Positions 11,568 to 13,686 are shown, counted from the first letter of the stretch. The stretch is 39,837 nucleotides of DNA from Escherichia phage pO103 (OR204651.1), one strand, 5' to 3'. Notes: generated by a model from the sequence alone, not told the origin. Made by a program: numbers and translations.

Positions 11568-13277
11568 ATGGATATGGAAGAACAACAAGAGAGTATATTC
11601 CTCTATCATTTACCTTGTGAGAACTGTGGGTCGTCAGATGGTAATGGCATGTATTCTGATGGACACCAGTATTGTTTTGTATGTCAGAATCATGTGCGTG
11701 GCACTGAGGAAACCCGTGAGCAAGTCTCCAAGAAGCGGAAACGCTCTTATAATACTGGAGGTGACACAATGTCCAACCTGTTAAACTTTGGGGATTCAGA
11801 TGGTCGCTACACGAACCTCAAAGCTCGTGGCCTTATGGAAGCTATCTGCCGTAAGTATGGTTATTGGGTAGCGAAGGTCAATGGTGAGATGCTGCAAGTT
11901 GCGAACTACTATGACGTTGAGGGAAACCTCGTGGGTCAGAAGGTGCGTGACAAGCACAAAGAGTTCTCCGCTAAGGGGAAACTCAAAGCTGACCTATTGT
12001 TCGGTAAGCAGTTATGGAATGGTGGCAAGAAGATTGTTGTGACAGAAGGTGAGATTGATTGCTTGACTGTAGCGCAGCTTCAAGAAGGGAAGTATCCCGT
12101 TGTGAGTCTCCCTATGGGTGCTCAAGCCGCAAAGAAAACATGTGCTGCCAACTATGAATACTTCGACCAGTTCGATGAGATTATCCTGATGTTCGACATG
12201 GATGAGCCGGGTCGTAAGGCTATCGAAGAATGTGCTCCTGTCCTGCCTAGCGGGAAAGTCCGAGTCGCTGTACTGCCTCTTAAGGATGCCAACGAGTGTT
12301 TACTCAATGGACAAGCCAAAGCAGTAACCGACCAGATTTGGAATGCGCAACCTTGGGTGCCTGATGGCGTTGTCTCTGCTGTATCACTCAAAGACCGTGT
12401 GCGTGAAGCTATGGTCAAAGAGGAAACAACAGGTCTACTCTTCACGGGCCAACCGAAGCTAAACGATATGACGCTGGGTGCTCGTGGTGGTGAAGTCATC
12501 ATGGTCACTTCAGGTTCCGGCATGGGTAAGTCAACATTCGTCCGTCAACAGATGCTCATGTGGGGCAAAGGTGGTGCGAAGGTAGGCTTGGCGATGCTCG
12601 AAGAAGCCGTTGAGGAAACTGTTCAGGACTTAATGGGCTTGAACAACCACGTCCGTTTACGTCAAGACAAAGAACTCAAGATGCAAATCTTAGAGGATGA
12701 TCGTTTCGACGAATGGTACGATGCCTTATTTAACACAGATATGTTCCACCTGTATGATTCCTTTGCGGAGTCACAGGAAGACCGTCTGTTCGCTAAGCTG
12801 GCCTACATGGTCGATGGCTTGGACTGTAACGTCATCCTGCTTGACCATATCTCTATTGTGGTCTCCGGGATGGAAGATAACTCTGATGAGCGTAAGACGA
12901 TTGACCGATTGATGACCAAGCTGAAAGCCTTTGCGAAGACTAAAGGTGTGGTCGTGGTGGTAATCTGTCACCTCAAGAATCCTGAGAAGGGCAAGAGTCA
13001 CGAGGAAGGGCGACCAGTATCCATAACAGACCTGCGTGGTTCTGGCGCACTACGCCAACTAAGCGATACCATAATTGCATTAGAGAGGAACCAACAAGGT
13101 GATTACCCCAATCTCGTACAGCTTCGTATACTCAAGTGCCGCTTTACTGGTGATACTGGTATTGCTGGTCATATGGTATACAACAAAGAAACAGGCTGGC
13201 TTGAACCGACTGAGTCACCTACGGAAGAAGGAGATGGAGATAATGGCTGGACTGAAGAAGACGGACAAGACTTCTAA
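11568..13277 (+). CDS. 4: Gene 4 DNA primase/helicase (4A); internal in-frame start near 11769 (MSNLLNFG) would give helicase-only 4B
   Basis: 569 aa from [25 protein letters not shown] (zinc-binding primase N-terminus); Walker A GSGMGKST; AGGAG RBS. Confidence 0.95.
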
Positions 13278-13686
13278 CTCTGAGCGTCTCGCTGGGTTTC
13301 TCAAGGAGACCCCCGGTGGGTGCCTTGAGTTTCAGGGAGGCCGTGTCCATAAATATGGTGTGTTCTGGATGAATGGTAAGAATCATCGGGCACATCGAGC
13401 CGCTTTCGAATTACACCACGGGAGAGAACCTAATGGTATTCTATTACACACTTGTGATAATCCTCTGTGCTGCAATCCCTCTCATTTATCTGAGGGAACT
13501 CAGTCTGATAATATGGCTGACATGGTGCGAAAAGGAAGATCACTCAAAGAAGTGAGGAACCCTATGTGTAAATTCACTGAGGAAGATGTAGCATTCATCC
13601 TCACGTCAACAATGAAGGTTAAAGACCTCGCTGCAAAGTTCGGAGTTTCCCGCCGCACCATCTCAAACTGGCGAAGGAAACAATAA
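13243..13686 (+). CDS. Second HNH-family endonuclease (paralog of 10096..10515); start uncertain (13234 or 13243)
   Basis: Motif [10 protein letters not shown]...[19 protein letters not shown] and C-terminal HTH-like [13 protein letters not shown]; overlaps 3-prime end of gene 4 in another frame. Confidence 0.65.

Follow-up and report, generated by a model that had tools for sequence, protein, structure and literature searches.

The DNA analysed here, which we refer to as the window, is a 39.8-kb stretch with the appearance of a complete T7-like phage genome. Its best matches, at approximately 90–93% identity, belong to Berlinvirus (Shigella phage A7, Escherichia phages D226 and P483 and Salmonella phage JSS1). 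The local gene order is the usual one: gene 3, 3.5, gene 4, an ORF that we call HNH-2, a phage promoter, 4.3, 4.5 and gene 5. Gene 4, the upstream neighbour, encodes the primase/helicase and occupies positions 11568–13277 of the plus strand, as indicated by its ORF and by a length and position like those of gene 4 in Kluyvera phage Kvp1. Gene 4.3, the downstream neighbour, is an ORF at 13747–13959 (plus strand) that is homologous to gene 4.3 of phage BA14. HNH-2 lies between them on the same strand at 13243–13686, and encodes 147 amino acids followed by a TAA stop codon (13684–13686). We annotate it as a probable free-standing homing endonuclease gene on the basis of the ORF, a match to the Pfam family HNH_3, an orthologue in Kvp1 and its dN/dS. 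Judged by its Pfam and PHROG scores, its orthologues and its dN/dS, the ORF is far beyond chance.

A sequence-only reading of the window had proposed that an HNH ORF begins here within the last 12 or so codons of gene 4, in another frame, and ends just before a candidate phi4.3 promoter. We found the ORF, with the core and C-terminal motifs quoted for it, in the +1 frame relative to gene 4. It overlaps gene 4 by 35 nt, or about 11.7 codons (13243–13277, plus strand), up to and including the gene 4 stop codon TAA at 13275–13277. The overlap encodes an N-terminal leader predicted to be disordered (residues 1–8, pLDDT below 50). The ORF does not, however, end before the promoter, as its stop codon and last two codons fall inside it. 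The promoter itself (CAATAAGACTCACTAATGGGACA, 23 bp; 13681–13703, plus strand) is of the phage-RNA-polymerase type and matches both the consensus of approximately 12 promoter-like sites in the genome and the annotated phi4.3 promoter of BA14, in agreement with the identity proposed for it. No sigma-70 promoter-like or terminator-like sites were found in 12900–14000. Because no promoter of its own was found, HNH-2 would depend on the middle (class II) transcripts that include gene 4.

Elsewhere in the window, four segments (13962–14151, 19240–19724, 24960–25325 and 35374–36412) had no BLAST match in A7 and/or Kvp1. Between genes 4.3 and 4.5, the first of these contains a small ORF that is listed in BA14 as 'unknown product'; the last is probably the variable C terminus of a tail fibre.

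Start codon and selection

The HNH-2 reading frame is open upstream as far as a GTG at 13099, giving a mechanical ORF of 195 amino acids, and it contains a further in-frame ATG at 13234. These features could be taken to mean that translation starts at 13234, or at GTG 13099 as a fusion to a remnant of gene 4.2, or that the ORF is not translated at all; we regard all of this as scarcely credible. Relative to orthologues of 68–74% identity, HNH-2 has a dN/dS of 0.05–0.12, with dN at about 0.2 and synonymous sites saturated, and a dN/dS of about 0.1 requires translation. Substitutions between the nearest copies are mostly synonymous too (dN/dS 0.23–0.29). By these ratios, HNH-2 is a translated gene under purifying selection.

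Comparison with relatives also distinguishes between the possible starts. A Shine–Dalgarno-like GAAGGAG (13227–13233, plus strand), identified from the sequence and its relatives and contributed by codons of the gene 4 acidic tail, is located 9 nt 5′ of ATG 13243. The arrangement GAAGGAG-N9-ATG is kept in Kvp1 and in the related sequences L008, L009 and L011, and L010 has the same 35-nt overlap. HNH carriers have AAT-GGC at this point and HNH-less BA14 and A7 have AGC-GGC, so the 13243 ATG is specific to carriers. By contrast, ATG 13234 directly abuts GAAGGAG without a spacer, is absent from L008 and L011, and occurs in HNH-less A7, where it merely falls at a boundary between codons of gene 4. 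The extension from GTG 13099 merely reads gene 4 in its +1 frame; upstream of 13243 there is no conservation at the protein level, and in a further carrier, L012, a stop codon interrupts this stretch. We rejected both starts for these reasons. No canonical start codon occurs between 13243 and a conserved helix that begins at residue 12. The choice between 13234 and 13243, which the sequence-only reading had posed, is thus settled by comparative genomics in favour of ATG 13243, where translation most likely begins. RNA structure around the start was no greater than in shuffled sequences (folding, z +1.25).

Protein family, active site and paralogues

HNH-2 matches Pfam HNH_3 (PF13392) over residues 49–92 with 46.9 bits (cut-off 24.8; E = 2.1e-12), and PHROG endonuclease families with E = 5e-30. 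In an alignment of 24 homologues, G39, R52, H69, C71, D72, N73, C76, H81, L82, G85, N90 and R99 are invariant, and C27 and H51 are nearly so. The HNH-2 core profile aligns without gaps to I-PpoI, pairing H69, C71, C76, H81 and N90 with H98, C100, C105, H110 and N119, respectively; the E value of this match (0.3–2) is insignificant alone, and we used the match for residue mapping and not as proof. According to established work on I-PpoI, H98 is the general base, C100, C105 and H110 are three ligands of the first zinc site, and N119 is the metal-binding Asn. By this mapping, His69 of HNH-2 would act as general base and Asn90 as metal ligand, and Cys27, Cys71, Cys76 and His81 would form a structural zinc site as in I-PpoI.

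The predicted catalytic core is a ββα-metal (His-Me finger) unit spanning residues 66–96 (13438–13530, plus strand) and containing His69, Cys71, Cys76, His81 and Asn90. In the structure model it consists of strands at 66–69 and 82–85 and a helix at 87–96, a fold that resembles solved His-Me nucleases and contains both the catalytic His and the metal-binding Asn. Foldseek comparison of the model with PDB structures yielded nothing below E = 0.3, and a Spire repeat put forward as a PDB relative by a single-protein sequence search was rejected as a chance match. Together, the HNH_3 match above threshold, the zinc ligands, the gapless I-PpoI alignment and the presence of His69 and Asn90 in all 24 homologues argue for the HNH endonuclease assignment made earlier, which a lack of the catalytic His or Asn on alignment would have undermined. 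From the core, a short linker would lead to a C-terminal three-helix HTH (residues 113–144; 13579–13674, plus strand), a predicted DNA-binding domain that would provide sequence recognition. An HTH-like region had been suggested at this end of the protein. Pfam HTH matches here are just below threshold (E about 5e-5), and the three helices of the model superpose on transposase and recombinase HTHs at 1.5–2.5 Å, consistent with that suggestion.

Two homing endonucleases offer points of comparison. I-PpoI, the product of a nuclear rDNA group I intron, acts as a dimer and makes a double-strand break; I-HmuI is likewise intron-encoded, has no Cys/His zinc cluster and is a nicking enzyme. HNH-2 differs from I-PpoI in being free-standing in a phage and in having the extra HTH domain. 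I-PpoI (His-Cys box, PDB 1a73) also has a second zinc site without counterpart in HNH-2: after N90, the 24-homologue alignment contains only C109 and no second Cys/His cluster of the I-PpoI type. HNH-2 therefore does not have the two zinc sites of a His-Cys box enzyme, although the first-site residues C27, C71, C76 and H81 are conserved. The overall layout of HNH-2 resembles that of I-HmuI (HNH, phage SPO1, PDB 1u3e), but the two proteins share only 13% sequence identity. In the literature that we searched, biochemical studies of enzymes of the T7 gp2.8 type or of the Kvp1 gene were not found, nor was any nuclease assay, cleavage site or cross for HNH-2 or its close relatives.

The window encodes a second protein of this family, HNH-1 (10096–10515), which is the orthologue of T7 gene 2.8 and lies between genes 2.5 and 3. 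Its sequence has 81% identity to T7 gp2.8 and matches a protein of Salmonella phage SWJM-03 completely (100%), whereas the identity of HNH-2 to T7 gp2.8 is only 42%. Pairwise alignment of HNH-1 and HNH-2 showed 41% identity over 132 amino acids, including the HTH. HNH-2 shares its Pfam family and its plan of N-terminal sheet, His-Me core and C-terminal HTH with HNH-1 and T7 gp2.8 (41–42% identity), and differs from them in genomic site. By site (genes 2.5/3) and high identity together, HNH-1 belongs to the T7 gene 2.8 group and HNH-2 does not. This full-length homology bears out the proposal that HNH-2 is a second HNH paralogue in the window. The same proposal held that the two proteins share the metal-binding core and differ in their flanks; the shared core stands, but homology is not confined to it. 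No third paralogue of the family was found within the window.

We rejected a recent intragenomic duplication of HNH-1 into HNH-2, given the 41% identity between them and their unequal identities to gp2.8. As judged by these comparisons, HNH-1 and HNH-2 are separate site-bound lineages of one family, and it is reasonable to suppose that they have different target specificities. HNH-1 overlaps the likely start of gene 3 (ATG 10496) by 20 nt. Neither Kvp1 nor A7 has it; on this pattern, it is a second presence/absence homing-type gene in the window. Other genomes also carry several HNH genes: L012 (Logan SRR15674886) has three HNH_3 genes, at the 3.5/4, 4/4.3 and 4.5/5 junctions, and L009 (Logan ERR13865485) has HNH-1-like and HNH-2-like genes and a third after the DNA polymerase gene.

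Distribution and the linked gene 4 tract

The closest annotated relative of HNH-2 is the Kvp1 protein YP_002308399.1, which is 98% identical and encoded at the same position; HNH-2 differs from the copies in Kvp1, L009 and the metagenome contig L072 by 3–4 residues. Genes of the HNH-2 lineage lie between genes 4 and 4.3 in Kvp1, L008, L009, L010, L011, L012 and L072, and orthologues of 68–74% identity are found at the gene 4/4.3 junction of other T7-like phages. A further eight phage records, representing six distinct phages (N30, AH67C600_Q5, MeretOppenheim, C5, JB01 and LNA7), contain a relative of 60–80% identity. The Teseptimavirus phages N30, AH67C600_Q5 and MeretOppenheim carry it at this same junction. 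The relatives in C5, JB01 and LNA7 are 69–73% identical, and the C5 coordinates are comparable to those of N30. Placement at a fixed site refers to every carrier whose context was read; C5, JB01 and LNA7 are known by sequence alone. Scans of IMG/VR for the lineage added only Kvp1, N30 and C5.

The carriers show at least five arrangements of the junction. In the window, Kvp1, L009, L010 and L072, the gene overlaps gene 4 by 35 nt and its stop codon lies inside phi4.3. L008 has the same 35-nt overlap, but no promoter, and the stop codon is 1 nt before the gene 4.3 ATG. In L011 the overlap is 38 nt and the 3′ end of the gene overlaps gene 4.3, and in L012 the gene has a GTG start and an 11-nt overlap. 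The fifth arrangement is that of N30, AH67C600_Q5 and MeretOppenheim, whose genes belong to the same lineage as HNH-2 (69–73% identity) and lie between the same two genes, but are located downstream of phi4.3, use the AAGGAG of the promoter as ribosome-binding site, do not overlap gene 4 and overlap the start of gene 4.3. The annotation of MeretOppenheim (L004, from 3409 onward) assembles the DNA polymerase CDS from two separate segments, a hint that gene 5 is interrupted by an intervening sequence (intron).

Kvp1 closely matches the window at this locus, with a 444-nt CDS, a 35-nt overlap with gene 4, a stop codon in the promoter and the linked gene 4 tract described below. The annotation of its copy gives an endonuclease with similarity to T7 gene 2.8, a 'homing endonuclease'; the label '2.8' denotes the family and not the position. 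In the Kvp1 genome paper, this region appears merely among several that are dissimilar to phage Berlin, and was not studied there. Kvp1 differs from the window in lacking genes 4.3–4.5: its promoter leads into gene 4.7, whereas that of the window leads into gene 4.3. Kvp1 positions 4382–4420 (L001), compared with window 13681–13710, show the promoter after the HNH gene joined straight to gene 4.7, and this looks like the product of recombination between the phi4.3 and phi4.7 promoters.

We found that HNH-2 is linked to a distinctive 3′ tract of gene 4. The 258 bp at 12985–13242 (plus strand), which sequence searches mark as a co-conversion-like flank, are 97.7% identical to Kvp1 and at most 81% identical to 1,218 other phage records, with none between these values. 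Gene 4 is 95–99% identical to that of HNH-less A7 up to about 12985 and 76–80% identical over the last 290 bp, whereas its identity to Kvp1 stays at 97–99% across the same 3′ end. The break is sharp against both A7 and BA14. Between the tract and A7, 39 of 85 codons differ, 32 of them synonymously. The downstream edge lies inside the promoter, at a point where the window ceases to match Kvp1 and matches A7 and BA14 again. From the breaks on the two sides, the block shared with Kvp1 extends from about 12985 to 13700. It was present in two of 225 flank-matching phage records, both of them Kvp1 entries, and the junction was empty in the other 223, including A7 and BA14. A possible residual HNH fragment in the BA14 spacer was discounted, as the alignment was only about 50% identical.

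Within gene 4, a 49-nt stretch at 13123–13171 has one mismatch to the HNH carrier N30 and six to the much closer, HNH-less BA14, in surroundings that are about 70% identical to N30; this could reflect either a brief tract of gene conversion or a helicase motif conserved at the codon level. A MAFFT pairing of the 3′ half of the N30 promoter with the gene 4 tail was treated as an alignment artefact.

The tract also overlaps a second reading frame. Where gene 4 ends in HNH-less BA14 (L002:1701–2063) and A7, its +1 frame is open and encodes a hydrophobic product of about 120 amino acids, annotated as gene 4.2. The ATG of this ORF is ACG (about 13000) in the window, Kvp1 and L009, and the frame there contains three stop codons, so that the HNH-linked tract destroys gene 4.2. 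The remaining 3′ part of gene 4.2 continues in frame into HNH-2, and HNH-2 residues 1–11 correspond to gp4.2 'IAAGNPKKTVRTS'.

A metagenome scan for the gene 4 tail returned three contigs (L072, L073 and L074) with flanks identical at 255–256 of 258 positions. L072 contains an intact HNH-2 gene. L073 (OERV01000079.1) has an in-frame 144-bp deletion corresponding to 13532–13675 that removes the linker and the HTH, and L074 (Ga0079226_10020170) has deletions of 112, 2 and 119 bp and reads through across the promoter.

Proposed homing, competing explanations and meaning

HNH-2 shows several properties of a homing gene. Comparative genomics of the junction, which had been suggested as a check, revealed one lineage at a fixed junction with a patchy distribution among relatives, that is, presence and absence at one fixed site among closely related genomes. 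A donor flank is inherited with the gene, and the shared block looks like a co-conversion tract. Degenerating copies, as expected from an invasion–decay cycle, exist in L073 and L074; intact and decaying copies on one flank fit such a cycle for homing endonucleases, and the decayed copies argue against an indispensable function. From sequence comparisons, we therefore think it likely that HNH-2 is a homing endonuclease gene of the free-standing, site-specific kind that occupies the gene 4/4.3 junction in a T7-like phage of the Berlinvirus type; its cleavage activity, target site and mobility are what we infer from them. In a mixed infection, the enzyme would nick or cut the HNH-less allele near the junction, and phage recombination would then repair the break from the HNH-carrying genome. 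Repair would copy the gene together with approximately 260 bp of the donor gene 4 3′ end and, on the other side, sequence up to the conserved phi4.3. The recoded gene 4 tract is a candidate target region. A single shared target site for the predicted homing is not obvious, because orthologues sit on either side of phi4.3 in different phages.

Other explanations account for parts of these data. Because T7-like genomes are mosaic in general, ordinary recombination could also have produced the linked flank, with a block (or mosaic) boundary that coincides with the gene by chance. It is unlikely, in our view, that HNH-2 is kept mainly because it benefits the phage, by blunting a break-sensing defence or damaging co-infecting rivals, with self-propagation secondary. 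A 2025 preprint reports that phage HNH homing endonucleases weaken the break-sensing GAPS4 defence, as does T7 gp3.8 in catalytically dead form, and that in the presence of GAPS4 a T7 mutant deleted for three homing endonucleases, one of the deleted loci being gene 2.8, is outcompeted (10.1101/2025.09.07.674715). Strong purifying selection on HNH-2 would also fit a useful protein. However, most close relatives do without the gene and natural copies on the same flank are ridden with deletions, both as expected for a dispensable selfish gene, and the protein tested directly in the preprint, T7 gp3.8, belongs to a different HNH family. Benefit to the phage and homing can coexist. The existence of degenerate copies of the same lineage raises the question of whether the window copy is itself an inactive relic, the open ORF of a once-mobile gene that no longer cuts or moves. 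This seems very unlikely to us, because the window copy is full length, keeps every family-invariant residue, and differs from the Kvp1, L009 and L072 copies by few residues and mainly by synonymous change.

An extension of the homing interpretation, which we put forward tentatively and think somewhat doubtful, is that the mobile unit is a two-part cassette consisting of the endonuclease and the approximately 260-bp recoded end of gene 4. The recoded tract would serve as the immunity determinant because the cut site would lie in the gene 4/4.2 codons of HNH-less phages. If so, an invaded phage would have its helicase tail, the part that binds the polymerase, replaced and would lose the overlapping gene 4.2, and the cassette would be a weapon in competition between co-infecting Berlinviruses.

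Under the homing interpretation alone, HNH-2 is an ordinary homing endonuclease gene of a kind already annotated in Kvp1. That T7-like phages vary in their free-standing HNH endonuclease genes is well known, and in this respect the gene has little discovery value. For annotation, the analysis provides the start at 13243 and identifies a distinct, junction-specific lineage that should not be called 'gene 2.8'. T7-family HNH_3 endonucleases appear to be without a mapped cleavage site, and one could readily be obtained at this junction. Together, the intact and decayed copies, the sharply bounded flank in an essential gene and the five junction arrangements provide a tidy natural example on which homing could be studied.
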